DNA of 64,000 nt from an uncultured Bacilli bacterium (GTDB lineage: Bacteria; Bacillota_I; Bacilli_A; RF39; UBA660), in contig CAKORY010000004.1 in the NCBI GenBank assembly GCA_934101795.1, forward strand, positions 18,468-82,467, in the 5' to 3' direction. Positions 27,290 through 43,355 of the stretch are shown here, piece by piece; the stretch's first letter is position 1, and each line of letters begins with the position of its first letter. The notes beneath the pieces were generated by a model. It saw only the letters and a program-made list of their open reading frames with translations. It was not told where the DNA came from and searched no databases. The position numbers and the translations under genes were made by a program.

Positions 27290-28573
27290 GTGATACAGAT
27301 GTTTAGAGATTTTGACTACGAAAATAAACCTGTTGTTGATATCGTAAATGAAATGATCGTAGATGCCATCAAGAAAAAAGCATCAGATATTCATTTTGAT
27401 CCAACTGAAGATTACCTTAATGTCCGCATTAGAATTGATGGGGAACTTTTAGAATATGCTAAAGTTCCTGCATTTGTTAAAAAAAATCTTTTAACTAGAA
27501 TTAAAATTATAAGTGGTATGAACATTACTGAATCACGACTTCCTCAAGATGGAGCCATTAAAAATATTGGAGATATTCAAGATTTAGACTTGCGTGTTTC
27601 TTCACTTCCTATTGTTGATGGTGAAAAAATTGTTATTCGTATTTTGAATTATACAATGTCTTCTGGAGGACTTGAAAATTTAGGCCTTTCACAAAAGAAT
27701 TTAGATAAAATTAATAAATTAATAAAAATGCCAAATGGTATTATTATGGTTACTGGTGCTACCGGATCTGGTAAATCAACCACAGTTTATAGTATGCTAC
27801 AAATTTTAAATACTGTTTCAAGAAACATAATTACGGTTGAAGATCCAGTAGAAATGAAAATTGCAGGAATTAATCAAGTTCAAGTTATGAGTGATATCGG
27901 ACTTACATTTGGAAATACGTTAAGAAGTATTCTTCGTCAAGACCCAGATGTTATAATGATCGGAGAAATTCGTGATGATGAAACAGCTCGTATTGCTGTT
28001 CGTGCATCTATAACTGGTCACTTAGTTTTATCAACAATTCACACTAATAACTCTCTTAATACAATTGAAAGATTACTTGATATGGAAGTTGAGAGATATT
28101 TACTTGGAAGTGCTTTAACTGGTATTATTTCACAAAGACTTGTTAAAAGATTATGTCCAAAGTGTCGTACAAGTAGACCTACTACAAATTATGAAAAAAC
28201 ATTATTTGAAAAAGTTTTAGGTAAAGAAGTTAATGAGGTTTATGTTCCTCAAGGTTGTAGCGAATGTATAAATGGTTATTCTGGCCGTATTGCTCTTCAT
28301 GAAGTTTTGGAAATAACTCAGGAAATACGTGATGCCATTACAAATAATATCCGTAAAAATGAACTTCGAAATCTAGTTTATAAAAAATCTGATGTAATAT
28401 CTCTTTTAGAAGATGGACTTGAAAAAGTAGTTGCTGGACTTACAAGTGTTGACGAAATACTTAGAGTAATTGATGTTGATGATGATATTGGTGAAGAAGA
28501 TACTGATATTAAAGATGCTTTTATAGGAAAAACTACAAATAATATAACAACAGGAGAAATTGAAACTTTATAG
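27290..28573 (+). CDS. GspE/PilB/ComGA-family type IV pilus/competence assembly ATPase
   Basis: 427 aa. Walker A GATGSGKST, Asp/His boxes and a tetracysteine CPKC..CSEC. GTG start with RBS AGGA 5 nt upstream. It is one of the few plus-strand genes. Confidence 0.85.
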   Translation: MIQMFRDFDYENKPVVDIVNEMIVDAIKKKASDIHFDPTEDYLNVRIRIDGELLEYAKVPAFVKKNLLTRIKIISGMNITESRLPQDGAIKNIGDIQDLDLRVSSLPIVDGEKIVIRILNYTMSSGGLENLGLSQKNLDKINKLIKMPNGIIMVTGATGSGKSTTVYSMLQILNTVSRNIITVEDPVEMKIAGINQVQVMSDIGLTFGNTLRSILRQDPDVIMIGEIRDDETARIAVRASITGHLVLSTIHTNNSLNTIERLLDMEVERYLLGSALTGIISQRLVKRLCPKCRTSRPTTNYEKTLFEKVLGKEVNEVYVPQGCSECINGYSGRIALHEVLEITQEIRDAITNNIRKNELRNLVYKKSDVISLLEDGLEKVVAGLTSVDEILRVIDVDDDIGEEDTDIKDAFIGKTTNNITTGEIETL

Positions 28574-28588
28574 TTTCAATTTTTTATC

Positions 28589-28619
28589 AAAAAAAACAAC
28601 CAAATTATGATTGTTTTTT
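28589..28619. terminator. AT-rich bidirectional hairpin between the convergent ATPase and pilin genes
   Basis: AAAAAACAA-11 nt-TTGTTTTTT, a weak stem with only one G-C pair. Confidence 0.35.
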
Positions 28620-29116
28620 TAATTTTCTGCTATTATACCACTATACTTAGCATAAACTATGTCATTTTCTACATAAACATAAACTTTTTCTCTATTTGCA
28701 TAATAACCACTTACAAAGTTTTTTTCTTCATCTGATGGAACCGTAACTTGTGCTTTATCTATAGTTTTATTTATAATAACTTTATAATTTTTTACTTCAT
28801 TATATTCAATAGTTTCTTTTGTATTTAAATAATTTCTATCTATAAGCGTTTGGACTTTAATAGTTAAACATGGTGCTATTTTTTTACTATTTATTTCACA
28901 ACTATGAGCATTTGGGTCTAGGTTTTTTATAAACTCTTTTTTATCATTTCCAAAACTTTCCCCGGCAGCTTCAATTAATTCAATATTAGTGTTCCACAAA
29001 CTTTGATTTATTCCCCTTTTAGCTGCGGCTATACCAATGCTTCCCATCAAAGTAATAATGGATATTATAACTACTGCTGCAAGTAATTCAACTAATGTAA
29101 ACCCATTTTTATTCAT
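28619..29116 (-). CDS. type IV pilin / ComGC-like pseudopilin with prepilin N-terminus
   Basis: MNKNGFTLVELLAAVVIISIITL: a G|FTLVE class III signal with Glu at +5. Confidence 0.75.
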   Translation of the reverse strand: MNKNGFTLVELLAAVVIISIITLMGSIGIAAAKRGINQSLWNTNIELIEAAGESFGNDKKEFIKNLDPNAHSCEINSKKIAPCLTIKVQTLIDRNYLNTKETIEYNEVKNYKVIINKTIDKAQVTVPSDEEKNFVSGYYANREKVYVYVENDIVYAKYSGIIAEN

Positions 29117-29123
29117 AACTCAC

Positions 29124-29678
29124 CTACTTAAGTAATAGCCTTAAAGCTTCTTTAACTTGTTCTTCCAAAGACTTACTGTGATCAACATTATTAATAACTT
29201 TTTTAATTTCAGCAGTTTTATAACCTAAAGCATTTAAAGTGTCCATTAAATCTTCAGTGCTATCATCTTCTACTTCAGTTACATCTATATCAATCTTACC
29301 TTTTAAATCAAGAATTATTTGACGAGCAAGTTTTTCTCCAATTTTTGGAAATTTAGTTAAATATAGGATATTTTCTCTATTAATTGCATCAACTATTCCA
29401 CTTATGGAACCTGTTGCAAGTATAGGAAGAGCAATTTTTGGTCCTAAACCTTTAACACTAATAAGTTTTAAAAATAGCTCATATTCTTCCTTTTCTTTGA
29501 AACCATACAAACTATACTCATCTTCACCAATTTTATTATAAACATAAACTTTATATTCTTTGTTTACTTCATAGCAAAATGGATTAGGAACATATATTAA
29601 AAAGCCTACGCCATTTGCTTCTACAACAATATTATTTATGCCTATCTCAGTAACAAAGCCTTTTATATAACTATACAT
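29124..29678 (-). CDS. ruvA: Holliday junction DNA helicase RuvA
   Basis: 184 aa with the OB-fold N-terminus (MYSYIKGFV...) and the HhH region VKGLGPKIALPIL. Confidence 0.9.
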   Translation of the reverse strand: MYSYIKGFVTEIGINNIVVEANGVGFLIYVPNPFCYEVNKEYKVYVYNKIGEDEYSLYGFKEKEEYELFLKLISVKGLGPKIALPILATGSISGIVDAINRENILYLTKFPKIGEKLARQIILDLKGKIDIDVTEVEDDSTEDLMDTLNALGYKTAEIKKVINNVDHSKSLEEQVKEALRLLLK

Positions 29679-31620: not shown

Positions 31621-31711
31621 TTGACGCATTGTTTTTTCTGTGCTATAATACAAGTATTAAAAGTTGTAGTCGTGGTGACTTTTCATCTAGTGTTACAACT
31701 TTTATTTTTTT
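31621..31711 (+). ncRNA. candidate small RNA: promoter TTGACG-17-TGcTATAAT (31621-31649) followed by a ~55-nt hairpin-terminated transcript (31656-31711)
   Basis: Consensus promoter with an extended -10. The transcript folds as AAAAGTTGTA-stem with loop TCGTGGTGACTTTTCA, followed by T8. It overlaps the stop of the convergent 31702-32424 gene. Confidence 0.4.
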
Positions 31712-32424
31712 ACGTTAATATTTTTTAAAATAATAAATTCATTATTTTTCTTTATTCCTATTTCTTCAATCCATCTTGCTTTTCTTCTAAAAATTTCTTC
31801 GGCTTGAATTACTAATTCATTCATACTTAAAGGAGAGTGAGTTGCTTCGAACAAAAATCTCACAGCTTGGTTATTTTTCCCATCAACGTTATGAAATAAT
31901 AATTGTTTACTTGCTCCGATTACTATTTTCATATCATAGTTTCCTAGAAACACATCATTCTTGTAAATTGTACAGTCAGATACGCTAACATTTTCAGGAT
32001 ATTCTATTTCTGGATTTAATTGGATTTTCAAAGTGGTATTTTTACAAAGCCATTTTGCAAAATTTGTTTCTTTTTGTTTTAATCTATATTTTATAAAATG
32101 ATTATCAATCAAATACTTTTTTCCTTTATACTCAAATATTTCATTTTTTTGTAGTATTTTTATTTCATTTCTGATTTCGTGTGTTTCTTCTAACCATTCA
32201 TTTGTAATATCAATATAGGATTGCGAATGTGTATTTTTTTCAACAACACTTTGAATATTTAAAGACATATAAAAACACTTTCTAAGCATCATATAATTAA
32301 GGCATTTTTGGTGTGGCTTCATGATACTGTAAAGTGTTTTAAAAATTCTGTACAAACAAACTATAACATAACATAAGTATATTTGCAATAAAAAATGTAT
32401 CTTTTTCTTAGCAATAAAATACAT
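31702..32424 (-). CDS. hypothetical protein (start uncertain; several in-frame Met)
   Basis: 240-aa ORF with no recognisable domain. Internal starts at MKPHQK or MSLNIQS are likely, since the N-terminal extension is hydrophobic low-complexity. Confidence 0.45.
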   Translation of the reverse strand: MYFIAKKKIHFLLQIYLCYVIVCLYRIFKTLYSIMKPHQKCLNYMMLRKCFYMSLNIQSVVEKNTHSQSYIDITNEWLEETHEIRNEIKILQKNEIFEYKGKKYLIDNHFIKYRLKQKETNFAKWLCKNTTLKIQLNPEIEYPENVSVSDCTIYKNDVFLGNYDMKIVIGASKQLLFHNVDGKNNQAVRFLFEATHSPLSMNELVIQAEEIFRRKARWIEEIGIKKNNEFIILKNINVKK

Positions 32425-32486: not shown

Positions 32487-33125
32487 ATGGAATATAATAA
32501 AATTAAAAATGCATATAAAATAATTGAAAATAGCAAATACTTTGTTAAGGATCCATATAGATATAAGAATAAATGGCATGATTTATTTGGCAATAAAAAT
32601 CCAATTAGTTTAGAACTTGGTATGGGACGTGGCGAATTTATAATCAATATGGCCAAAAAGTATCCAAATATTAACTTTATTGGGCTTGAACTTTATCCAT
32701 CACAAATGGTTATGGCTACAGAAAAGCTTCAAAAAGAAAAAATTACTAATTTAAAATTAATTAATGATGATGCTAGGAATATCGACAAAATATTTGGTAA
32801 AGAAATATCGACAATATACTTAACTTTCTCAGAACCTTGGCCGAAAGGTATTGATGAAAAAAATAGATTTACTCATATAAGTTATTTAAAATTATATGAT
32901 AAAATATTTAAAAAAGATAAACATATTATTTTAAAGACTGATAATAAAGGACTATTTGCATATTCACTTGAAACACTATCACAATATTGGTACACCTTTA
33001 ATAAAGTTAGTTTAGATTTACATCATGATGAGAGAAATATTAGTAATATAATGACTGATTTTGAAAAACAATATGAAAAAGAAGGAAGACCTATTTATTA
33101 CGTAGATGCTAAATTTGATGAATAA
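32487..33125 (+). CDS. trmB: tRNA (guanine46-N7)-methyltransferase
   Basis: 212 aa with the SAM-binding motif LELGMGRGEF and the TrmB core FSEPWPK. Confidence 0.9.
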   Translation: MEYNKIKNAYKIIENSKYFVKDPYRYKNKWHDLFGNKNPISLELGMGRGEFIINMAKKYPNINFIGLELYPSQMVMATEKLQKEKITNLKLINDDARNIDKIFGKEISTIYLTFSEPWPKGIDEKNRFTHISYLKLYDKIFKKDKHIILKTDNKGLFAYSLETLSQYWYTFNKVSLDLHHDERNISNIMTDFEKQYEKEGRPIYYVDAKFDE

Positions 33126-33151
33126 AACACCAGAAAATCTGGTGTTTTTTA
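33125..33151. terminator. bidirectional intrinsic terminator (AAACACCAG-aaaat-CTGGTGTTT + T-run)
   Basis: Lies between the convergent trmB and 33152-34399 genes. Confidence 0.7.
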
Positions 33152-34399
33152 TTATTCCACTACTTTAAATATGGTTGGTATTCCTCTGGTTCTGTGTCTT
33201 AAAGCTGAATCAATTGGATCATTTAACATATCAAATGTTGCATCTTTTCCAGTACCATGCTTTTCTACCATAACACTTGATGTTCCACCATCTAAGTTTG
33301 CAGCATTAACGGCACCATATCTATCCATGATATCAACTAAATCTTTCATGGAAGCTCCTTTAGTACGAGTAGCATTAGAATCAACAACTAACATTAATAC
33401 AATGCCATCTTTTCTTTGACCAATAGCAGTTCTAGCAGCATATCCCCAACCACCATTTCCTTTAGTAAATGACTTTTGGCCATTAACTATTAAAAATGGC
33501 CCCATGGATACAGCATCTCTAATTCCCATTTCTAAAGCTTTTTCTCCACCAACGTTTTGAAGAAGAACTAAAGTGTTATCAGTATTAAAGCCTACTACGC
33601 CAGATGCACCACCCATATTATGATCGGTTATAATTTTTTTGTTAGATATTGTTAGACCTACGGGATTTGCTCCATTACTATTATAATTTGGATCCATAAA
33701 TCCTCCACCATTAATGGTTAAAACTGAATTTTGTTCCTTTGCCATATCATAAATATATTGTCCACTTCTACCAAGCCATTTAGAATATCCAACACTTATT
33801 TTACTTGGATCATAAACAACTCCTAAATAAGCATCACAGCCATTAACCTTAAATTTTATTATTTTATATAAATCATCCTTATTTCTTTCTAATATCTGTT
33901 TTTCATATTCATTTTTATAATTTAAAGTTTCTTTATGATCAACAAGGGTAGGATCTGTTTCTTTTCCACCATCATCAATATAATTGTTTCCTAAAACTTT
34001 ATTTATTTCTTCGGTACTATAGAACCATTTACAATAATACTGATGGTTCATTGTGGCCATAGCTGTTGTAATAAGCCATTCTTTAAATCCAGTAAATGGG
34101 CCATATAAGATAAACAAAAATGTTGAACAACCAAACATATATGTAACTATTAAAACTGAAACCACTATCATTTTAGCTTTACTAAAGGCTTTTCTATGCT
34201 TATTTTTTACTAAGCTAACTATACCAATAATTAAGCTTAAAACACTAATTATTAAGACAATTAATGATATTAATTTGAATATGTTTTTAACTAAATAATT
34301 AGAATTACATCCAATTACATAAAATACTAAACTTGTAAATAATATAAATGTACTTATCCAAATTAATAATAAACTTTTTTTCTTATTCATTTTTATCAC
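33152..34399 (-). CDS. membrane-anchored phosphodiester glycosidase family protein (NAGPA/DUF2233-like)
   Basis: 415 aa. Three N-terminal TM helices, then a domain with GFNTDNTLVL...NLDGGTSSVM typical of the phosphodiester glycosidase family. Confidence 0.55.
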   Translation of the reverse strand: MIKMNKKKSLLLIWISTFILFTSLVFYVIGCNSNYLVKNIFKLISLIVLIISVLSLIIGIVSLVKNKHRKAFSKAKMIVVSVLIVTYMFGCSTFLFILYGPFTGFKEWLITTAMATMNHQYYCKWFYSTEEINKVLGNNYIDDGGKETDPTLVDHKETLNYKNEYEKQILERNKDDLYKIIKFKVNGCDAYLGVVYDPSKISVGYSKWLGRSGQYIYDMAKEQNSVLTINGGGFMDPNYNSNGANPVGLTISNKKIITDHNMGGASGVVGFNTDNTLVLLQNVGGEKALEMGIRDAVSMGPFLIVNGQKSFTKGNGGWGYAARTAIGQRKDGIVLMLVVDSNATRTKGASMKDLVDIMDRYGAVNAANLDGGTSSVMVEKHGTGKDATFDMLNDPIDSALRHRTRGIPTIFKVVE

Positions 34400-35243
34400 C
34401 TAAATACTCCTTCACTTCTTCTATTGTTTTAGAAAAATCTTCAAAATTTACATTAAACCATTTAACATCCATCTTATTATTAAACCATGTATATTGTCTT
34501 TTAGCATAATGCCTACTATTTTTCTTTATTAAATCAATTGCCTCTTCTATAGTAATATTTCCACTTAAATAGTCGATTATCTCTTTATAACCTATTGCTC
34601 TTTTAAGTATCATACTATTTGGATATTTTTTATAAAGTGTTTTAACTTCTTCAATCAATCCATTATTTATCATTACATCTACTCTATTATCTATAATTTC
34701 ATATAATTTGTTTCTTTCTGTGGTAAGACCTATAAATATACAATCTTCATAAAGCAAAATTGGTTCTATTTTTTGGTCATTACTTCTTTTTAAAAATCTT
34801 TCAAGCCTTACTCTGTTATTTCTGTCTATACAACAATTTTTATCTTTTTTTAAAGCTAAGTCATATAATTTTTCTAAAGAATATGAGCTATAATCTGTGT
34901 CATTTTCATCTTCATAAAATCTATAGTCATAAGCTCCAGCTGTTGCATATAATCCAGTTCCACCTACTATAATAAGATTTTTGTCTTTATATTTTGCGAA
35001 TAAATCTCTTAAATCCTTTTGATAATCCTTAACATTATATTCTTCATCTGGATTTTTTATATCAAAAAGAAAATGCTTAATCCCTTCTTTTTCTTCTTCT
35101 GTTACTTTTGCACTACCTATATTAAGTTCTTTATATACTTGCACAGCATCGCAATTAATTATATAAGCATCTAAATACTTAGCTAAAGCTATACTTAATT
35201 TGGTTTTTCCTACTCCGGTAGGACCCATTATAAATATTTTCAT
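34383..35243 (-). CDS. miaA: tRNA dimethylallyltransferase
   Basis: P-loop IMGPTGVGKTKLSIALA and the MiaA core. Confidence 0.9.
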   Translation of the reverse strand: MKIFIMGPTGVGKTKLSIALAKYLDAYIINCDAVQVYKELNIGSAKVTEEEKEGIKHFLFDIKNPDEEYNVKDYQKDLRDLFAKYKDKNLIIVGGTGLYATAGAYDYRFYEDENDTDYSSYSLEKLYDLALKKDKNCCIDRNNRVRLERFLKRSNDQKIEPILLYEDCIFIGLTTERNKLYEIIDNRVDVMINNGLIEEVKTLYKKYPNSMILKRAIGYKEIIDYLSGNITIEEAIDLIKKNSRHYAKRQYTWFNNKMDVKWFNVNFEDFSKTIEEVKEYLGDKNE

Positions 35244-35302: not shown

Positions 35303-36190
35303 TTATTTTATTAATTTATATTCTCTTACTTTTATCCTTTCATCACTGCAATATTCCATGATAAACTTATTATCTTTTCTACAAAGTATAATACCTATTG
35401 TTTTATCTTGCATTGGATTTCTTAAATTCTTATCTATATAATTCATATAAACTTCTATTTGACCTATATGTTCTTTTTTTAGTTTAGTAACCTTTAACTC
35501 AACCACTACATAACAATTAAATTCAATGTTATATAATAGTAAATCAATATAATTATAGCTATCACCTATCTTTATTTGGTATTCATTTGATATAAAACTA
35601 AATGAATTACCTAGTTCTTTTAAAAATGCTGGTATATCTTCAAGAATCATTTTTTGTAACAATTTTTCTGATATTACTTCATAATTAGTATTATTTTTTA
35701 TTATAATTGGATTTTTGATAATATCTTGAAGATTTAATTTTTCTTCATTAATTAACTTTAGTTTAGTTTGTTCATCTAATCTTTCATATTCTTTATTTTT
35801 AATACGTTTGCGAAGTTCACGCACTGATAAATTTTGCTCTTTACAAATTGTTATATAGTAATTAATTTTGTTTATATTATCAAACCATATTAATTCACAA
35901 TAATGTGAGTATGTCAAAAAGTCCGACATTGTCGGACTTTTTGACAAAACTTCATAAAATCTTCTTGCATATTTTAATCTGGTTACTGTATATCCTTTGC
36001 CAAATTCTTTAGTTAACTTATCTGAATATTCTTTGATAATACCTTCACCATAATGTTTACCTGCTTCACTTAGTAGTTTTCCAACGTTATAATAAGTTGT
36101 TAAGTCACTTTTGTTTTTTGAATAATCCTTTACCTTTTTAGTTATCTCATTATTTAGTATTTCGTTTTTTATCTCATTATAATAATTCAT
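35303..36190 (-). CDS. DUF1016/YhcG-family PD-(D/E)XK nuclease-like protein, tandem copy a
   Basis: 295 aa. N-terminal YYNVGKLLSEAGKHYGEGIIKEYS...KGY..RLKYARRFY matches the DUF1016 N-domain. C-terminal IDLLLYN-x10-VVELK-x3-LKKEHIGQ is the D..E.K nuclease core. Confidence 0.7.
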   Translation of the reverse strand: MNYYNEIKNEILNNEITKKVKDYSKNKSDLTTYYNVGKLLSEAGKHYGEGIIKEYSDKLTKEFGKGYTVTRLKYARRFYEVLSKSPTMSDFLTYSHYCELIWFDNINKINYYITICKEQNLSVRELRKRIKNKEYERLDEQTKLKLINEEKLNLQDIIKNPIIIKNNTNYEVISEKLLQKMILEDIPAFLKELGNSFSFISNEYQIKIGDSYNYIDLLLYNIEFNCYVVVELKVTKLKKEHIGQIEVYMNYIDKNLRNPMQDKTIGIILCRKDNKFIMEYCSDERIKVREYKLIK

Positions 36191-37058
36191 ATTCTCTTAC
36201 CTTTATCCTTTCATCACTACAATATTCCATGATAAACTTATTATCTTTTTTACAAAGAATAATACCTATCGTTTTATCTTGCATTGAATTTCTTAAATTC
36301 TTATCTATATAATTCATATAAACTTCTATTTGACCTATATGTTCTTTTTTTAATTTTGTAACCTTTAACTCTACAACTACAAAACAGTTAAATTCATAAT
36401 TATACAAAAGTAAATCAATATAGTTATAGTTACAACCAATTTTAATTGGATATTCATTTGATATAAAACAAAATGAATTACCTAGTTCTTTTAAAAATGA
36501 TGGTATGTCTTCAAGAATCATTTTTTGTAACACTTTTTCCGATATTACTTCATAATTAGCATTACTTTTTATTATAATTGGATTTTTGATAGTATCTTGA
36601 ACTTCTAATTTTTCGTCTTTAATTAGCTTTAGTTTTGTTTGTTCATCTAATCTTTCATACTCATTATTTTTAATACATTCTCGAAGCTGTCTAACAGAAA
36701 GACTGTTTTGTTCACACATTGTAATATAATATTTTATTTTAATAGTATCATTTAATTTAAACAATTCACAAAAATGACTCCATGACAAAAAGCCAGACAG
36801 TGTTTGGCTTTTTTGAAAATTATAGAACTTTCTCATATTTTTTAAATTACTTAAACCATAACCTTTACCAAATTCTTTTGTTAACTTTTTTGAATATTTC
36901 TTAATAATACCTTCACCATAATGTTTACCTGCTTCACTTAAAAGTTTTCCAACGTTATAATAAGTTGTTAAATCACTTTTGTTTTTTGAATAATCCTTTA
37001 CCTTTTTAGTTATCTCATTATTTAGTATTTCATTTTTTATCTCATTATAATAATTCAT
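36177..37058 (-). CDS. DUF1016/YhcG-family PD-(D/E)XK nuclease-like protein, tandem copy b
   Basis: 293 aa. The first ~55 and last ~170 residues are almost identical to copies a and c, while the middle is about 50-60% identical. The start overlaps the stop of copy c by 14 nt (GAATATGAATTATTATAATGAG). Confidence 0.7.
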   Translation of the reverse strand: MNYYNEIKNEILNNEITKKVKDYSKNKSDLTTYYNVGKLLSEAGKHYGEGIIKKYSKKLTKEFGKGYGLSNLKNMRKFYNFQKSQTLSGFLSWSHFCELFKLNDTIKIKYYITMCEQNSLSVRQLRECIKNNEYERLDEQTKLKLIKDEKLEVQDTIKNPIIIKSNANYEVISEKVLQKMILEDIPSFLKELGNSFCFISNEYPIKIGCNYNYIDLLLYNYEFNCFVVVELKVTKLKKEHIGQIEVYMNYIDKNLRNSMQDKTIGIILCKKDNKFIMEYCSDERIKVREYELL

Positions 37059-37929
37059 ATTCTCTTACCTTTATCCTTTCATCACTGCAATATTCCATAA
37101 TAAATTTATTATCTTTTCTACAAAGAATAATACCTATCGTTTTATCTTGCATTGGTTTTCTTAAATTCTTATCTATATAATTCATATAAACTTCTATTTG
37201 ACCTATATGTTCTTTTTTTAATTTAGTTATCTTTAATTCTATAACTACATAACAATTGAACTCAATGTTATATAATAGTAAATCAATGTAATTATAGTTG
37301 CAACCAACTTTAATTGGATATTCACTACCTACAAAAGAAAATGAATTACCTAACTCTTTCATAAATTCTTCAATATCTTCAAGAATAATTTTCTCCAATG
37401 CTTTCTCAGATATTACTTCATAATTAGCATTACTTTTTATTATAATTGGATTTTTGATAGTATCTTGAAGTTTTAATTTTTCATCTTTTATTAGCTTTAG
37501 TTTTGTTTGTTCATCTAATCTTTCATACTCATTATTTTTAATGCGTTCTCGAAGCTCACGTTTTGACAAATTATTTTTAATAGTAACATTAATATAATAG
37601 GTTATTTTTTCCTTATTATTAAGTGGTAATAATTCTATATAATGACTCCATGTTAATTGGTCAGCCACCGGCTGACTTTTTCCAAATTCATAAAATAATC
37701 TCATATATTTTAAAGTAGTAACTGAATAATTTTTATTTAATTCCTTACTCAACTTTTTTGAATATTCCTTGATAATACCTTCACCATAATGTTTACCTGC
37801 TTCACTTAAAAGTTTTCCAACGTTATAATAAGTTGTTAAGTCACTTTTGTTTTTTGAATAATCCTTTACCTTTTTAGTTATCTCATTATTTAGTATTTCA
37901 GTTTTTATTTCATTATAATAATTCATCAT
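37045..37929 (-). CDS. DUF1016/YhcG-family PD-(D/E)XK nuclease-like protein, tandem copy c
   Basis: 294 aa with the same architecture. It lies 19 nt downstream of comEC. Confidence 0.7.
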   Translation of the reverse strand: MMNYYNEIKTEILNNEITKKVKDYSKNKSDLTTYYNVGKLLSEAGKHYGEGIIKEYSKKLSKELNKNYSVTTLKYMRLFYEFGKSQPVADQLTWSHYIELLPLNNKEKITYYINVTIKNNLSKRELRERIKNNEYERLDEQTKLKLIKDEKLKLQDTIKNPIIIKSNANYEVISEKALEKIILEDIEEFMKELGNSFSFVGSEYPIKVGCNYNYIDLLLYNIEFNCYVVIELKITKLKKEHIGQIEVYMNYIDKNLRKPMQDKTIGIILCRKDNKFIMEYCSDERIKVREYELL

Positions 37930-37948: not shown

Positions 37949-39994
37949 TTAATTTAATGCATATTTTAGTTTTATTTTATTTTTATTTAACTTTATACAG
38001 ATCGTACCTTTTAAATCTGTTCTTAAAACTTTACTATTTTTTAAATTTTCTAATACTTCTTCATGTGGATGCCCATATTTATTGTTTCTTCCTACACTTA
38101 TGACTGAATAGATTGGTTTTAAAGTATTGATAAAATTCTTACTAGTACTATATTTACTTCCATGATGGCCAATTTTTAAAAAATTAATGTTTGTAATTTT
38201 GTATTTTTCTAATAGTTTTTCTTCAACTTTAATTGATGCATCACCCATAAAAAGAAATTTATAACCTAAAAAAGTTACATAATTTACAATACTATTATCA
38301 TTTTCATTGTCATATATGTCATTATTTAAATTTACTATATTAAAATATTTAAAATTGTATTTTTTTGTAATATTAACTTTAGAAGAAATAATTTCTTTTT
38401 CTAAATTATTAATGTTTCCACTATTTAATATGACACTCTTTACATTGATATTTTCTATAATATTTAAACTTTCTTTTGCATGATCTGCATCACCATGTGT
38501 AATAATCATACATGAAAGACTGGTTATACCTTTACTTTTTAAAAATTTAATAGTGTTGTTACTTAAGTGGTAGACTTTCTTTTTCTTTTTCCAATCAGCC
38601 AGTTTATATTCTACTTTGCCACCAGTATCAATCATAATAGTTTCTTTATTATGCGGAGATACAAGAATACTAGAATCACCTTGACCAACATCTAAATAGT
38701 AAACATAATAGTTAAAATCTAAGAAAGGTAATAATTTACAAGTAACAACTATTAATATTAATAAATATAAGTTTTCCTTTTTCTTAGTTAACAAAATTAT
38801 ATAAAATAAAGTAACAAAAATTATTGGCATTTTGGGTATATTTATTAATAAACAAAATTTACCTAAAAATATATTGAAATTGTTAGTAACTGATATAAAA
38901 AAATTTAATATTGGATTTAAACATGGAAAGATAAACGAAATTAAAATAAATGGATATAAGAATAAACTTACCCAAGGAACAAAAATAATATTAATTAGAA
39001 TTGAAAGTAAATTTACTTCAAAGTTTACTAAGGCCGTAACTGGTAAACTAAATAAAAAAGTTATAATACTTAATTTTAGTAGTTTTATAAAATAATTGCC
39101 TTTTATATAATCGGTGTAATAAATAATACCAAAACAAACAACAAAAGAATAAATAAAACCTAGATCATAAATCATAAAAGGATCGATTAATAAAATTAAA
39201 TAAGCACTTAAAATAAGTATATGCATATTTGAATATCTAAGTTTCTTCAGCTTATTTATTTTTTTCAATATATAAAATATTATAGCACGCATTATTGATG
39301 CAGTTATTCCTGTTAAAAATAAATATAATAACAAAAATACTGATGTTGCAAAAAATTCTTTTTTTTCACTTTTTATAATTTTTGAAATTAATAAAACTAA
39401 CATATTAATATGCATTCCTGATATTGCTAATAAATGACTAATACCATTTTTTTGATATGCATCGTAGATATCACTTGATAGTAGTGCCTTATCCCCAAGT
39501 ATGAAAGCTAAATAGTAATCACTATTTTCACTATTGTATATTTTTTTAAATAAGTTATCCTTTAATTTATAGATTAGATTATTACTATCAATTATTTTAT
39601 ATTCAGAAATATTAAAAATATAATATATTTTTTTGTTATATAAATATCTTTTATAATTAAAAGTATTTGGCACTGTATTATTAAGAGGTTCACTAAATGA
39701 ACCTCTTAAATATACTTTGCTTCCAAGATGAAATGTATTAAATATACTATTTTTTTCTTCTTCTGTTTGAACATAATAATTTGCTATTATATTTTCCCTA
39801 GCTTTAATATTTATTGTAAGTTTATTTCCATCAAGTTTCATACTTGTGATTATACCAGTTACATATTCCTCTTTTATGTCATATTTAGAGGAATATTTTA
39901 TTATTTTTGTAAAAAATATTATATAAATAAATATAAATATACCTAATATTACTAAAAGTTTATTAAATTGTAATATTTGCTTTAAATTTTTCAT
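37949..39994 (-). CDS. comEC: DNA internalization competence protein ComEC/Rec2
   Basis: 681 aa polytopic membrane protein with a C-terminal metallo-beta-lactamase domain (HGDADH). Confidence 0.9.
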   Translation of the reverse strand: MKNLKQILQFNKLLVILGIFIFIYIIFFTKIIKYSSKYDIKEEYVTGIITSMKLDGNKLTINIKARENIIANYYVQTEEEKNSIFNTFHLGSKVYLRGSFSEPLNNTVPNTFNYKRYLYNKKIYYIFNISEYKIIDSNNLIYKLKDNLFKKIYNSENSDYYLAFILGDKALLSSDIYDAYQKNGISHLLAISGMHINMLVLLISKIIKSEKKEFFATSVFLLLYLFLTGITASIMRAIIFYILKKINKLKKLRYSNMHILILSAYLILLIDPFMIYDLGFIYSFVVCFGIIYYTDYIKGNYFIKLLKLSIITFLFSLPVTALVNFEVNLLSILINIIFVPWVSLFLYPFILISFIFPCLNPILNFFISVTNNFNIFLGKFCLLINIPKMPIIFVTLFYIILLTKKKENLYLLILIVVTCKLLPFLDFNYYVYYLDVGQGDSSILVSPHNKETIMIDTGGKVEYKLADWKKKKKVYHLSNNTIKFLKSKGITSLSCMIITHGDADHAKESLNIIENINVKSVILNSGNINNLEKEIISSKVNITKKYNFKYFNIVNLNNDIYDNENDNSIVNYVTFLGYKFLFMGDASIKVEEKLLEKYKITNINFLKIGHHGSKYSTSKNFINTLKPIYSVISVGRNNKYGHPHEEVLENLKNSKVLRTDLKGTICIKLNKNKIKLKYALN

Positions 39995-40739
39995 AAGTTG
40001 CCTTACCGATACCTTTAACTTTCATTATTTCATCAATAGATTTAAATTCTCCATTAGCTTCACGATAATCAATGATTTTTTGGGCTTTAGCTTCACCTAT
40101 ACCAGTAAGGGTTGAAAGTTCTTTTATACCTGCAGTATTAATGTTTACTAATTTATTTACTAATGTGTTTTTATTATCATTATTATCATTTGATTTAATT
40201 TCATCAACAACTTTACTTTCGGATTTTTCAATTACACTTTCATTATTTTCTAGAGAACTATCAATATTATATTCTGGTACTATATTTTTTTCATTAGTCT
40301 TATTAGAAAATGAAGTATTTTTATTTGTACTTGAACTTTTATTTACATTATTTGGCTTATCTACACTACTTGCTTTTTTCTTTATATTATCTTTATCATA
40401 AACAACAACAACCATTTCATCCTTAAGTTTCATACTTAAATTAATATTGTCATAATAAGCTTTTTTGCTAAAACCTCCGGCTGCATCAATTAAATCTTTA
40501 AGTCTACTGCCTTCATCAAACTCATAAACTCCAGGTGATATAACTTCTCCTTTTATTTCGGCTTTAATTTTTATACTTTGATTTTTTTCAGAAATAGTTT
40601 CATTAACTAATAAGTTATTATTTTCACTATCAATATACTCATCATCATTAAAATTCATAAATGCATAAATTCCTCCACTAATTATTAATAAAATTATTGT
40701 TATTCCAACTATTATTACTTTTTTATTAAATATTTTCAT
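39963..40739 (-). CDS. comEA: competence protein ComEA (DNA receptor, SLBB + tandem helix-hairpin-helix)
   Basis: N-terminal TM, an SLBB-like IKGEVISPGVYEFDEGSRLKDLIDAAGG, and a C-terminal HhH2 (LVNINTAGIKELSTLTGIGEAKAQKII). RBS AGGAGGA. Confidence 0.85.
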   Translation of the reverse strand: MKIFNKKVIIVGITIILLIISGGIYAFMNFNDDEYIDSENNNLLVNETISEKNQSIKIKAEIKGEVISPGVYEFDEGSRLKDLIDAAGGFSKKAYYDNINLSMKLKDEMVVVVYDKDNIKKKASSVDKPNNVNKSSSTNKNTSFSNKTNEKNIVPEYNIDSSLENNESVIEKSESKVVDEIKSNDNNDNKNTLVNKLVNINTAGIKELSTLTGIGEAKAQKIIDYREANGEFKSIDEIMKVKGIGKATYEKFKANITI

Positions 40740-41960: not shown

Positions 41961-42797
41961 ATGAAACGAAAAATAACTATTTTACTTATTATGACATTTA
42001 TTATACTAATTTTTAATAATTATGATATTGTTTTGAAAAGTACTTTGGATGCTACCACTATATGGCTTAATAGGGTTTTTCCAAATCTTTTTATAATGAT
42101 TATTATTCAAGACTTATTAATTAATTTAGATTTTGCATCATTTTTTAAAAATACTGCTGTTTACATTTTTATTATGTCTCTTTTAAGTGGAACACCTTCT
42201 GGAACATATATTATTTCTAAATTAAAACAGCAAAATATAATTAGTAAAGAATATGCTAATACTTGTTTGATTTTTACATTTTTTGCTAATCCATTATTTT
42301 TATATTCTATATTAAATTCTATATTCTTAAGTAAATTTATAACTATTAGATTAATGTTAATTTTATATTTAACAAATCTTTTCTTGTATTTTATATATAA
42401 AAAAGATTTACCATCAAATGGTAAATCTATAAATGCTAATGAAATTAATTTATCTTCTTCAATTAAAACTAGTATAAATACCACTATTACTGTTCTTGGA
42501 GTTATAACATTTTACCTTATATTATCAAATATTATAATTACTGAATTTAATATTATTTATCCATTTAATATTTTCTTTAAAGGATTTTTAGAAATGACTC
42601 AAGGGCTGGCAGCACTAATTAATGCTAATATAAAGTTCAAAGAAATTATATCAATGATATTTATATCTTTTGGGGGTTTTTCTATTCATACTCAAGTTTC
42701 ATGTATCTTAAATGAGGCTGATTTATCATACAAATACTTTTTTAAAGGTAGGATAATACAAACTATTTTAGTGGTTTTGCTAACAATTATAACCTAG
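41961..42797 (+). CDS. YlbJ-like sporulation integral membrane protein (nucleoside-recognition/Gate domain-like)
   Basis: 278 aa, 7-8 TM. Divergent from the ylbL-like gene, as in the Bacillus ylbJ-ylbL neighbourhood. Assigned by context plus a weak motif (GFLEMTQGLAAL). Confidence 0.4.
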   Translation: MKRKITILLIMTFIILIFNNYDIVLKSTLDATTIWLNRVFPNLFIMIIIQDLLINLDFASFFKNTAVYIFIMSLLSGTPSGTYIISKLKQQNIISKEYANTCLIFTFFANPLFLYSILNSIFLSKFITIRLMLILYLTNLFLYFIYKKDLPSNGKSINANEINLSSSIKTSINTTITVLGVITFYLILSNIIITEFNIIYPFNIFFKGFLEMTQGLAALINANIKFKEIISMIFISFGGFSIHTQVSCILNEADLSYKYFFKGRIIQTILVVLLTIIT

Positions 42798-43355
42798 ACA
42801 AGTAATATTTTTGTTAAAATCTTGTGATTTACCAATATAACTTATTAAAATATCATCTAATAAATTATTATTTCCAAATTTATTTTTATCATTTGTTGTG
42901 TGCACTTCAATATCTATTTGTAATGTATATATTCTTTTATTTACTTCATTTATTTTATCATCACTATAGCTTACATTTGCTTTTTTTGTATATATTTTTC
43001 CTCCATCTATTGTCCAATTTCGTGTGCTATTACTTGAACTTTTATAAGTAAATTTGTTTTCAGTTGCATCTATAATACTAGTTTTATTATTTTTAAAAGT
43101 AAATTTTATTTTTAAATTATTACTCGTAGAACCTGTACTATCAATATCAGTTATAACATTGTTATTTAAATCATTTTCTATCATTCTTAATATTTCTGCT
43201 CTGTTAATTTGATTGTCTTTGGCATATACATTATTTGTTTCTGTATTATTTAAATCTACTAAAAGTCTCATTAGAAAGATTAAAATAATAGATATTAATG
43301 CAATACTTATTACAAGTTCTAAAAGTGTACTTCCTCTTTTATTCATTTTTTTCAT
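42780..43355 (-). CDS. prepilin-type pseudopilin / minor pilin
   Basis: MKKMNKRGSTLLELVISIALISIILIF: a G|STLLE class III signal. 191 aa. Confidence 0.65.
   Translation of the reverse strand: MKKMNKRGSTLLELVISIALISIILIFLMRLLVDLNNTETNNVYAKDNQINRAEILRMIENDLNNNVITDIDSTGSTSNNLKIKFTFKNNKTSIIDATENKFTYKSSSNSTRNWTIDGGKIYTKKANVSYSDDKINEVNKRIYTLQIDIEVHTTNDKNKFGNNNLLDDILISYIGKSQDFNKNITCLGYNC

Follow-up and report, generated by a model that had tools for sequence, protein, structure and literature searches.

A conserved palindrome embedded in the coding sequence of tandem DUF1016/YhcG genes, a family of predicted nucleases

Organization of the DUF1016/YhcG locus

Three intact genes of the DUF1016/YhcG family lie head to tail on the minus strand, between comEC and miaA, in the window (the whole 64-kb stretch of DNA that was analysed). 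The features of the locus are as follows.

39963–40739, minus strand: comEA (domain match, SLBB + HHH_3)
37949–39994, minus strand: comEC (Competence + Lactamase_B, i.e., metallo-beta-lactamase), directly upstream of the array
37045–37929, minus strand: DUF1016 copy C, first in the array, 294 aa (ORF and Pfam)
37540–37764, minus strand: variable module of copy C (codons about 56–130), with the probable HTH, the linker and the LTWSH helix
37057–37464, minus strand: YhcG_C domain of copy C, predicted PD-(D/E)XK nuclease
37045–37058, minus strand: 14-nt overlap ATGAATTATTATAA of the C stop and the B start
36177–37058, minus strand: DUF1016 copy B, 293 aa (ORF and Pfam)
36672–36896, minus strand: variable module of copy B (codons about 55–129)
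36189–36596, minus strand: YhcG_C domain of copy B, predicted PD-(D/E)XK nuclease
36177–36190, minus strand: 14-nt overlap ATGAATTATTATAA of the B stop and the A start
35303–36190, minus strand: DUF1016 copy A, last in the array, 295 aa (ORF and Pfam)
35801–36028, minus strand: variable module of copy A (codons 55–130)
35315–35728, minus strand: YhcG_C domain of copy A, predicted PD-(D/E)XK nuclease
34383–35243, minus strand: miaA (IPPT), directly downstream of the array

The original prediction of a tandem trio with near-identical ends and a divergent middle was borne out, and so were its period of about 868 bp (the direct repeats measure 871 and 868 nt) and its identical 14-nt stop/start overlaps (both junctions read ATGAATTATTATAA). 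Copy C has an RBS-like GGGAG, 19 nt past the comEC stop, and copy A retains the ancestral C-terminus ...REYKLIK. The B/A and A–miaA junctions are reproduced in a separate 1.46-kb metagenome contig (L001).

Based on Pfam, all three copies match DUF1016_N (E 1e-23 to 2e-27; 82–96 bits) and YhcG_C (E 1e-36 to 1e-38; 123–133 bits), each above the gathering cut-offs of about 32.5–32.8 bits. Both domains that define the family (PF17761 + PF06250, COG4804; PDC-S02) are matched over their full length, and the PADLOC models of the candidate defence family PDC-S02 are matched by copies A–C with E values from 1e-62 down to 1e-65. The catalytic D...E-x-K motif (IDLLLYN...V(V/I)ELK) is intact in the three copies; D216, E231 and K233 are invariant across these copies and 92 relatives. 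By motif and fold, the C-terminal domain is a predicted nuclease of the PD-(D/E)XK superfamily. The modelled domain matches EndoMS/NucS at E 4.6e-4 (5gke and 2vld at E 5e-4 to 9e-4) and the domain also matches Pfam NucS_C, in line with the earlier assignment as similar to NucS and the archaeal Holliday junction resolvases (Kosinski et al. 2005). The resemblance to these nucleases concerns the C-terminal domain alone, whereas the N-terminal domain of DUF1016 is different and the genes have no mismatch-repair context. A sequence search of the PDB with the full-length profile found no homologue. In searches of the DUF1016, yhcG, PDC-S02 and COG4804 literature, neither a functional study nor a mention of the palindrome described below was found, and tandem arrays and a ParB-like N-domain of DUF1016 were described in no paper found.

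Concerted ends and old middle modules

The ends of the three genes had been described as about 95–100% identical. This holds for the N-terminal part (codons 1–50, 95–100% nucleotide identity), but the C-terminal half is less uniform than claimed, since identity there is only 72–98%. Codons 60–130 share 57–70% nucleotide and 35–65% amino-acid identity. Gene conversion at the ends, as originally proposed, agrees with the concerted evolution seen within arrays, where identity is higher than between loci: the median nucleotide identity is 0.92 within arrays versus 0.79 between loci for the N-terminal part, and 0.885 versus 0.76 for the C-terminal part. End segments have their nearest neighbour in the same array for 28–30 of 51 copies, and middle segments have their closest relatives in other genomes for 42–49 of the 51.

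The supposed diversification of the middle is not recent, because synonymous sites are near saturation (dS 0.86–1.3) and dN/dS is 0.24–0.46. The middles are old module types that are shared across genomes and reassorted. A breakpoint scan places the clusters of recombination breakpoints at codons 99–115, away from the palindrome. The scan replaced single-linkage clustering of the modules before, at and after the palindrome, which chained everything together.

The array was predicted to expand, contract or shuffle, and copy number and composition indeed vary among relatives. Ten conspecific contigs have a single copy each, as does the closest genome, while other loci contain up to at least six full copies, or seven matches per locus. 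The single resident gene of the conspecific contigs is 100% identical to copy A over nt 301–420 and 97–100% identical to copy C over most of nt 541–870. A triplicated array next to the DNA-uptake genes had been regarded as unusual; related low-GC gut Bacilli commonly have tandem arrays, of 1 to at least 6 full copies. The linkage to competence genes withstood the neighbourhood check: comEC is directly upstream in 26 of the 80 related loci, and this adjacency recurs even where ComEC is only 38–50% identical. Other loci of the same family lie in plain housekeeping contexts without defence or mobile-element genes.

Two mechanisms of programmed variation were considered and rejected. For a phase-variable inversion or shufflon, only direct repeats were found in all 80 loci, and there was no recombinase among the genes at 26.5–44.2 kb. 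For a diversity-generating retroelement, neither an extra copy of the variable region nor a reverse transcriptase among the neighbours was found, and substitutions occur all over the module (dS about 1). Like the HsdS target-recognition domains, shufflons and pilE/pilS cassettes, the DUF1016 genes have constant ends around a variable segment, a recognition segment in those systems, with exchange by recombination in the constant parts. They differ in that all DUF1016 copies are direct repeats and complete, apparently expressed genes; in contrast to shufflons and pilS, the locus yielded neither inverted repeats nor an invertase nor silent partial cassettes.

A palindrome embedded in the coding sequence

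The most striking feature of the array, missed in the original prediction, is a palindrome embedded in each gene.

37660–37676, no strand assigned: copy C palindrome, GTCAGCC-ggt-GGCTGAC, 7-bp arms
36787–36813, no strand assigned: copy B palindrome, AAAAAGCCAAAC-act-GTCTGGCTTTTT, 12-bp arms with one A.C mismatch
35912–35946, no strand assigned: copy A palindrome, TGTCAAAAAGTCCGAC-aat-GTCGGACTTTTTGACA, 16-bp arms

The arms differ between neighbouring copies, and their position is fixed. Of 108 related copies, 85 have a perfect stem (6 bp or longer, 3-nt centre) at reference codon 87, compared with 4 at the runner-up position, and the 3-nt spacing is held in all 108. The arms of the related copies have 66% G+C versus 22% for the host genes. 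When synonymous codons were resampled for the same peptides, 0.8 copies had a stem of at least 7 bp versus 84 observed; the palindrome is kept by codon choice and not by the peptide. The arms covary with a score of 0.624 versus 0.141 in shuffles (0 of 500 reach 0.624) and at most 0.107 for slid partners, and the six inner pairs are 93–100% paired, with 26–50 double changes each.

The palindrome characterises the DUF1016 family as a whole. Among distant members, a stem of 7 bp or more is present at the same site in 89 of 144 genes, versus 4.3% of random zones, and in 82 of these 89 the palindrome is the longest hairpin of the gene; about 40% of distant members have no clear palindrome at this site. 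It is present, at a fixed codon position, in E. coli yhcG and in genes of at least five phyla.

The symmetry extends into the centre of the palindrome, whose bases could not pair in a hairpin. At the first of the three central bases, which falls on a synonymous third codon position, 118 of 118 distinct palindromes have a purine, with about 54 pyrimidines expected, and all 8 non-coding copies have A.

Copies outside the gene were also found. With at most 1 mismatch allowed in 14 arm bases, a second copy of the gene's own palindrome occurs within 1.5 kb in 12 of 81 distant loci, for an estimated chance expectation of about 0.05 in total. Seven of these copies are in non-coding DNA, five of them 20–52 nt upstream of the start codon and two 10–12 nt past the stop, so that some DUF1016 loci combine an intragenic palindrome with a promoter-proximal copy 250–300 bp away. 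In E. coli K-12, three sites are inside yhcG and one is in non-coding DNA 20 nt past its stop, and they share the half-site ATT(C/T)N(C/G)CAGAC. Among related loci a second copy was found for 1 of 84 copies, and in the 64-kb window for none. With a flanking copy in only about 9% of distant loci, and for 1 of the 84 copies in related ones, an operator close to the promoter is not the general arrangement.

The main rival to sequence-specific recognition is a hairpin in mRNA, antisense RNA or single-stranded DNA, with no role for recognition by the encoded protein. Such a hairpin could act as an internal attenuator or terminator, as a ribosome or RNase checkpoint, or as a stabiliser, and nuclease expression would be kept low. 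The strong covariation and nearly perfect pairing are what a hairpin would require, as is the G+C richness of the arms; as RNA, the copy A palindrome has a folding energy of -26.1 kcal/mol (z = -7.2). In the related clade the stem comes after an A-run, and in copies A and B it is followed by a T-run. The upstream copies at two loci (L100 and L209) are terminator-like, with an A-run, the stem and then a T-run. Apart from the three gene palindromes, the 64-kb window has a single G+C-rich palindrome of this type, and that one is a bidirectional terminator between genes (33124–33148). However, the T-run after the stem is lacking in copy C and in most family members, where a U-tract is missing on both strands, and the terminator scan called none of the three palindromes an intrinsic terminator. 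Rfam 15 gave no match in the genes, its two chance-level matches both being outside genes. A hairpin also leaves three things unexplained: the repeats of the gene's own arms in non-coding flanks, the purine at the first central base, which mirrors the third, and the fixed 3-nt spacing. Taken together, we consider the hairpin a serious but rather doubtful alternative.

Two more specific versions were dropped. Wobble mismatches are asymmetric (A.C, which would be G.U on the antisense strand, against G.T, 18 versus 3 and 13 versus 2; a codon-structure null built from the synonymous transitions open to the arms expects 0.74 and 0.64), but this asymmetry is not significant against that null, so no folding strand is identified and the claim of an antisense RNA strand was abandoned. 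An antisense terminator was rejected too, the A-run before the stem being confined to the low-GC clade and not family-wide.

The palindrome may instead be a selfish or neutral by-product, i.e., a small unit lodged in a permissive loop, or a quasi-palindrome perfected by template-switch errors of replication. The unit does lie in a surface loop tolerant of insertions, and several genes have it as tandem repeats: the alleles of E. coli yhcG contain 1, 2 or 3 palindromic units, in steps of 13 codons. Copies in nearby non-coding DNA would also fit. This origin is very improbable in our view, as the codon position is fixed across at least five phyla, and a neutral element should decay to the local composition, yet the arms have kept their high G+C content in a gene of 22% G+C. 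No copies were found elsewhere in the 64-kb window or past the immediate flanks, and template switching does not account for the central purine rule. Compared with REP/BIME units and the in-frame Rickettsia palindromic elements, the DUF1016 palindrome is likewise a short unit translated as a protein loop and, in yhcG, variable in number, but it is much shorter and confined to one gene family and one position, and is not dispersed in the genome.

The N-terminal domain and the putative role of the palindrome

The divergent middle probably encodes a ParB/Noc-like HTH, fused to the NucS-like PD-(D/E)XK nuclease domain. We infer this fold from three weak lines of similarity, all under the usual thresholds. 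First, Foldseek with the first structural model (pLDDT 70–95 in the N-domain) matched the Noc DNA-binding domain on its palindromic site (6y93_A) with a probability of 0.96 and a TM of 0.67, normalised to the target, but with an E value of 0.56 and an rmsd of 3.7 over 107 columns; other ParB/Noc entries were matched likewise. Second, the Pfam HTH_ParB match of the N-domain has an E value of 0.026, under the cut-off. Third, when the N-domain profile was searched against PDB sequences, B. subtilis Spo0J (6sdk) came first, at a weak E of 0.08, in an alignment that pairs IVQTLS..LSWSH with IQQLIAEGTLSMGH. The hhalign comparison of the profile with one plasmid ParB gave no match and is uninformative, because that ParB itself has no HTH_ParB match. 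A second, better model did not sharpen the assignment of the N-domain, since matches to the nuclease domain dominated.

As the middle maps onto this probable ParB/Noc-type HTH, the earlier idea that it determines specificity is plausible. The recognition module would comprise codons about 55–105, extending to 130, with HTH helix 2, the recognition helix, the linker and the LSWSH helix. The loop encoded by the palindrome is at residues 83–93, just past the putative recognition helix. It should be noted that the core GTGCAGAC accompanies at least two different recognition-helix sequences, so the helix cannot read the core in a simple way.

Based on the above results, our best explanation, which we hold tentatively and at somewhat less than an even chance, is that the encoded protein binds the palindrome as its cognate site, which serves as a built-in autoregulatory operator. 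The flanking copies of a gene's own arms and the symmetry of the centre suggest a sequence-specific rather than a merely structural role. At the same time, selection for a stable hairpin would also produce arms rich in G+C in an A+T-rich genome, a nearly perfect symmetry and arm lengths of up to 16 bp. Under the proposed autoregulation, the array would be an operon-like set of three intact two-domain paralogs, each with an N-terminal DNA-binding domain (probably HTH) and a C-terminal nuclease. The palindrome in the linker-coding stretch would be the double-stranded DNA site of the HTH dimer made from the same gene, and would act as an operator or a transcriptional roadblock ahead of the nuclease-coding half. 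With such a self-site, a potentially toxic and horizontally mobile gene could keep its expression in check at any new location, foreign operons like comEA-comEC included, and the position of the site would keep it tightly linked to the specificity determinants. Gene conversion would keep the ends alike, and the ends could double as homology arms for the exchange, gain or loss of modules or whole copies. Copies A, B and C would then form three orthogonal protein–site pairs.

Comparable arrangements exist in part. ParB–parS and Noc–NBS are HTH dimers on 16-bp palindromes, and the DUF1016 N-domain, with its similarity of fold and weak similarity of sequence, would have the embedded palindrome as target. 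However, DUF1016 has no ParB N-terminal CTPase domain and its putative HTH is fused to a nuclease; its half-sites are 3 nt apart and hypervariable between paralogs, unlike parS and NBS, and the site is within the sequence encoding the DNA-binding domain itself. One B. subtilis parS site is reportedly located inside the spo0J (parB) gene. The auxiliary operators lac O2 in lacZ and gal OI in galE are likewise palindromic protein-binding sites inside an ORF, as predicted for the DUF1016 site, but they are in a downstream structural gene and not, as proposed here, in the regulator's own gene, and they have no single codon position conserved across phyla.

Could the palindrome be a target of cleavage or nicking by the DUF1016 nucleases, whose breaks would start gene conversion, module replacement and the variable arrays? 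A symmetric site of 17–33 bp is in the range of homing endonuclease targets, and the nuclease domain is NucS/resolvase-like. Mosaicism is extensive, the ends evolve in concert, the site is within the exchanged module, and the adjoining DNA-uptake genes could supply donor DNA. We nevertheless find cleavage unlikely. Cutting a perfect site in the enzyme's own gene would be self-destructive, with no immunity factor evident, and such a site inside the nuclease's own gene is atypical of homing endonucleases, although its length fits. Moreover, the breakpoints are at codons 99–115 and not at the palindrome, and the element is equally conserved in single-copy genes such as E. coli yhcG.

The original prediction pointed toward a restriction-like defence set, its middle rapidly diversified against DNA imported by ComEC; the palindrome would then be incidental. 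The PDC-S02 match (E down to 1e-65) and the adjacency of comEC in 26 of 80 loci support defence, and DUF1016 genes are known to be enriched beside phase-variable restriction-modification loci and to occur inside type I restriction-modification operons (PMC9881135). No experimental test of anti-phage protection by PDC-S02 was found in the literature searched. On the other hand, with its saturated dS and a dN/dS below 0.5, the middle bears no sign of recent positive selection; its modules are old types that different genomes share, and other loci of the family are in housekeeping contexts. Sites as long as the proteins' own palindromes would be too rare for general restriction, and the palindrome itself is under strong selection. 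A defence set of this kind therefore appears improbable to us.

A bolder form of the cognate-site reading, possible but to our mind doubtful, is that every DUF1016 nuclease is hard-wired to its own palindrome, so that the family would be a vast natural library of orthogonal protein–DNA site pairs in which the self-site, beyond repression, serves as a DNA antidote or as an allele mark. As an antidote, the self-site would hold the nuclease inactive on its own gene, and loss of the locus or a mismatch of protein and site would free the toxic activity, as in an addiction module. As a mark, the palindrome would single out alleles to be cut and converted in an allele-specific way; this would account for the arrays and the mosaicism, and also for the spread into operons, plasmids and phages.

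The DUF1016/YhcG nucleases form a very large family that is still uncharacterised; it occurs on chromosomes, plasmids, integrative elements and phages and in restriction-modification operons, and is a candidate for defence. The conserved nucleotide-level element inside the coding sequence is the first concrete mechanistic handle on this family, and the pairing of protein and palindrome is directly testable, with E. coli yhcG first. The arrays also illustrate clearly how, in nature, gene ends can evolve in concert next to long-lived specificity modules. If the pairing is true, it would account for the ability of a potentially toxic nuclease gene to enter any operon and yet control itself, and it would provide many ready-made orthogonal HTH–operator pairs. 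It would also mean that a DNA site, and not protein function, can dictate part of a protein sequence, which would matter for how conservation and dN/dS are read in such regions.

Array anatomy and genomic setting

The window (G+C 26.8%) contains three DUF1016/YhcG genes arranged head to tail, with a repeat period of 871 and 868 nt and with comEA, comEC and miaA as neighbours:

35303-36190, minus strand, DUF1016 copy A (ORF, 295 aa)
36177-37058, minus strand, DUF1016 copy B (ORF, 293 aa)
37045-37929, minus strand, DUF1016 copy C (ORF, 294 aa)

Both copy junctions share the identical 14-nt overlap ATGAATTATTATAA, the next start codon lying 11 nt before the previous stop. All three copies matched Pfam DUF1016_N and YhcG_C well over threshold and kept the D...E-x-K nuclease motif. 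In a sliding window, nucleotide identity was 95–100% over codons 1–50, 57–70% over codons 60–130 (35–65% for amino acids) and 72–98% in the C-terminal half. The B/A and A/miaA junctions were reproduced by an independent metagenome contig of 1.46 kb. Given this contig and the confirmed anatomy and mosaic, the originally noted array of three tandem genes with similar ends and a divergent middle is real. The internal copies end in REYELL (36177-36200, 37045-37068), and the last copy (35303-35330), like the single gene resident in related genomes, ends in REYKLIK. The 3′ end of a DUF1016 gene (GAATATAAATTAATAAAATAA) is similar to its own 5′ start (ATATGAATTATTATAATGA), so the first tandem junction probably arose through recombination at this microhomology.

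Competence-related genes are plentiful around the array, with further DNA-uptake or pilus-type genes found besides ruvA:

27290-28573, plus strand, T2SSE ATPase
28619-29116, minus strand, prepilin-type N_methyl protein
42780-43355, minus strand, prepilin-type N_methyl protein
29124-29678, minus strand, ruvA

Scanning one genome per species yielded 80 loci from uncultured gut Bacilli (labelled Tenericutes, Erysipelotrichaceae, CAG:822 or CAG:433), and several genomes had more than one. At least two DUF1016 matches, always in the same orientation, were present in 37 of the 80 loci and at least two full-length copies in 18, with a maximum of 6 full copies or 7 hits; spacing between copies was mostly -14 nt or +1 to +13 nt. 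ComEC was encoded directly upstream in 26/80 loci, including ComEC only 38–50% identical to that of the window. In another locus type, DUF1016 lay between rpoC-LemA-DUF2207 and a PGA_cap gene, and no mobile-element or defence genes were found near it. Three related proteins (P0121, 596 aa; P0006, 362 aa; P0002, 307 aa) represent two fused tandem copies or an ORF reading through the junction, and one of them has an internal 14-aa duplication (KNPIIISNKFKDTIKNPIII).

The closest genome (flanks 89–99% identical) has one DUF1016 gene between comEC and miaA. A single gene was also found in ten conspecific metagenome contigs with identical MiaA, where short-read assembly may collapse such repeats; comEC was ~97–98% identical in the seven in which it could be aligned. 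Between trmB and obg, conspecific contigs (10088-10456 in L253, and equivalents) carry small CdiA_C toxin-domain ORFs of 110–161 aa, and the window has a 240-aa ORF without a Pfam match there instead (31702-32424, minus strand). The resident gene bears yet another module type (STKWQTLSAI); its nt 301–420 are 100% identical to copy A, and most of nt 541–870 is 97–100% identical to copy C. Because the window copies are mosaics of this gene, which has a different module type, the array is a recombination product in which the conserved parts served as homology arms; mere threefold copying of the resident gene does not account for it. The variation from one copy to six bears out the suggestion of a recombination-prone array.

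Age of the gene parts

Substitution rates of the three copies were estimated by the Nei-Gojobori method.

Divergence among window copies A, B and C by region
Codons 1-54: dS 0.11-0.24; dN/dS 0.03-0.14
Codons 55-130: dS 0.86-1.3; dN/dS 0.24-0.46
Codons 201-292: dS 0.45-0.57; dN/dS about 0.1

Among 109 full-length copies, only the ends were more similar within arrays than between loci (N-terminal part, identity 0.92 vs 0.79; C-terminal part, 0.885 vs 0.76). The variable parts were equally divergent within and between loci (0.56–0.63), and their nearest relatives came from another genome for 42–49 of 51 copies. By these values, gene conversion keeps the ends alike, and the high dS of the middle, together with relatives in other genomes, shows it to be a set of old module types. 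Thus, of the predicted conversion at the ends and diversification of the middle, the former stands and the latter, as a recent process, does not. A rapidly diversifying defence array, as first proposed for this mosaic, is accordingly an improbable reading, since the modules are old and regional dN/dS of the three copies gave no signal of recent positive selection.

A palindrome embedded in the variable module

At one shared codon position, each copy holds a palindrome that is rich in G+C and has a 3-nt centre:

Copy A: TGTCAAAAAGTCCGAC-aat-GTCGGACTTTTTGACA
Copy B: AAAAAGCCAAAC-act-GTCTGGCTTTTT (one mismatch)
Copy C: GTCAGCC-ggt-GGCTGAC

Only three perfect G+C-rich palindromes of this geometry occur in the 64-kb window, two being those of copies A and C. 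The third (33124-33148, AAAACACCAGA-aaa-TCTGGTGTTTT), between convergent trmB and a NAGPA-domain gene, is a typical intergenic bidirectional terminator.

A protein-level alignment of 108 distinct related copies placed a perfect stem (6 bp or more, 3-nt centre) at reference codon 87 in 85 of them (next best position, 4), and the 3-nt spacing was kept in 108/108. The arms were mostly 7–8 bp long (maximum 16 bp), with 32 distinct inner 7-mers and 66% G+C vs 22% for the genes. Stems of at least 7 bp numbered 84, vs 0.8 copies after synonymous-codon resampling of the same peptides. For 104 distinct sequences, anchored by protein alignment and not picked for pairing, the covariation score was 0.624 vs 0.141 when shuffled (0/500 reached 0.624) and at most 0.107 with slid partners; the six inner pairs were 93–100% paired, with 26–50 sequences changed on both sides at each.

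The window copies were also compared by alignment with eleven plasmid DUF1016 genes from seven phyla and with E. coli K-12 yhcG. In 8/12 of these genes the palindrome occupied the corresponding position, shortly before the LSWSH motif, and it was the best hairpin of the gene in 7 of these 8:

E. coli: AAAGATTTGGCAGAC-gct-GTCTGCCAAATCTTT
IncHI plasmid: CAATTGTCGTGAC-gct-GTCACGACAATTG
Pseudarthrobacter: CAATTGTCCAGAC-atc-GTCTGGACAATTG

Metagenome and viral contigs supplied another 144 distinct genes. In this zone, 89 of them had a perfect stem of 7 bp or more (10 bp or more in 49), vs 4.3% of random 14-codon zones, and in 82 of the 89 it was the longest hairpin of the gene. The common form CAATTGTnCAGAC-nnn-GTCTGnACAATTG encodes P-I-V-Q-T-x-S-x-Q-L. 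The embedded palindrome is thus a hallmark of the DUF1016 family. Four viral contigs (L205, L207, L211, L212) have, besides the usual palindrome, a second, very G+C-rich hairpin of 12–13 bp with a 4-nt loop (TCGAGGCGGCGCG-cttg-CGCGCCGCCTCGA) around reference codon 18, in the N-terminal helix region.

It is possible, with some doubt, that the palindrome acts only as a hairpin. Its G+C-rich, nearly perfect and sometimes long arms are those expected of a stable stem, and some copies resemble terminators. However, 12 of the 81 distant loci held the gene's own palindrome a second time close by, with no more than 1 mismatch over 14 arm bases (we estimate about 0.05 by chance in total): 5 copies preceded the start codon by 20–52 nt (those of L100 and L209 had a -10-like box before them and the ribosome-binding site after them), 2 lay 10–12 nt past the stop, and 5 were additional units within the gene. 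In E. coli K-12, CAGAC-nnn-GTCTG occurs four times in 8 kb (0.15 expected), three times inside yhcG and once in non-coding DNA 20 nt past the stop (L082, NC_000913.3, 6126-6238 and 6969-6997), all sharing the half-site ATT(C/T)N(C/G)CAGAC. The yhcG units are tandem, 39 nt each (IHQTMSGE / IPQTPSAE / IWQTLSAK), and alleles of 349, 362 and 375 aa have 1, 2 and 3 of them. The first central base, a synonymous third codon position, was a purine in 118/118 distinct palindromes (A 97, G 21; ~54 pyrimidines expected) and A in 8/8 non-coding copies, and the third was a pyrimidine in nearly all, so both half-sites read ...GAC-R toward the centre. This symmetry falls where hairpin pairing is impossible. 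A wobble-pair asymmetry test looked promising and was accounted for by codon structure. Against a DNA site are the occurrence of the same core with different recognition helices and the restriction of flanking copies to a minority of loci. On these sequence patterns, the recurring copies, the E. coli sites and the central symmetry speak for a DNA site with two-fold symmetry and sequence specificity. That it is instead a selfish or neutral palindromic unit seems very unlikely.

Protein fold and a possible autoregulatory circuit

No solved structure matched the DUF1016 protein in sequence. In a first AlphaFold model (pLDDT 63 overall, 70–95 in the N-domain), the palindrome-encoded residues 85–93 form a loop between helices 69–84 and 94–100, and the only sensible PDB matches were ParB/Noc DNA-binding domains, the best being 6y93, Noc on its palindromic site (probability 0.96, TM 0.67, weak E-value). 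Weak sequence matches were obtained between an enterobacterial member and Pfam HTH_ParB (E 0.026) and between the N-domain profile and B. subtilis Spo0J, its best PDB match (E 0.08; IVQTLS..LSWSHyveLL...WSvrqLe vs IQQLIAEGTLSMGHGRTLLGL...LNVRQLEQ); one plasmid ParB, itself without an HTH_ParB match, returned no similarity to the profile. The N-domain is therefore a probable ParB-like HTH. By the Spo0J alignment, G-K-G-(F/Y)-S-x-x-N-L-x-x-M-R-x-F would be the turn and recognition helix, with the palindrome encoding the linker after it; if this is right, the variable middle is the DNA-recognition module. Over the stretch of the DUF1016_N profile from the HTH to LSWSH, PDB 9vtc / 9lwv (deposited as DciF) gave a weak match (E about 0.1), and copy A residues 68–107 (35780-36190, minus strand) matched HMUDK_hel, the 5-hmdU DNA kinase helical domain, under the cut-off (E 0.008). 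A second model (pLDDT 71) had a proper nuclease domain matching EndoMS/NucS (E 4.6e-4), in agreement with Kosinski et al. 2005.

We suggest that every DUF1016 protein uses its ParB-like HTH to bind, in dimeric form, the palindrome of its own gene. The half of the gene that encodes the nuclease comes after this site, so a bound protein would stop or dampen transcription of the potentially toxic part. Such a circuit would travel with the gene and function inside foreign operons, here comEA-comEC; elsewhere the family occurs in type I restriction-modification operons (PMC9881135). With the site within ~30–60 bp of the recognition-helix codons, recombination would be kept from parting protein and site. 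Copies A, B and C would form three orthogonal protein–site pairs. The observed breakpoints (codons 99–115) lie downstream of both, which could just reflect where homology exists. A role of the palindrome as a cleavage site or recombination initiator is unlikely. Binding, repression and what the nuclease acts on in the cell are all inferred.

Judged by sequence, the window genes are ordinary DUF1016/YhcG members, i.e., PADLOC candidate PDC-S02. The DUF1016/YhcG literature searched contained no functional study and mentioned neither arrays nor the palindrome. Operators inside coding regions are exemplified by lac O2 and gal OI. These, together with ParB-parS and Noc-NBS, recognition modules with constant ends swapped by recombination, and in-frame palindromic elements, are among the nearest concepts. 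Unlike all four, the DUF1016 site sits in the coding sequence of the putative DNA-binding domain itself, keeps one codon position from phylum to phylum and differs between tandem paralogs. The array and its palindrome are a variation on known kinds, in which binding is predicted.
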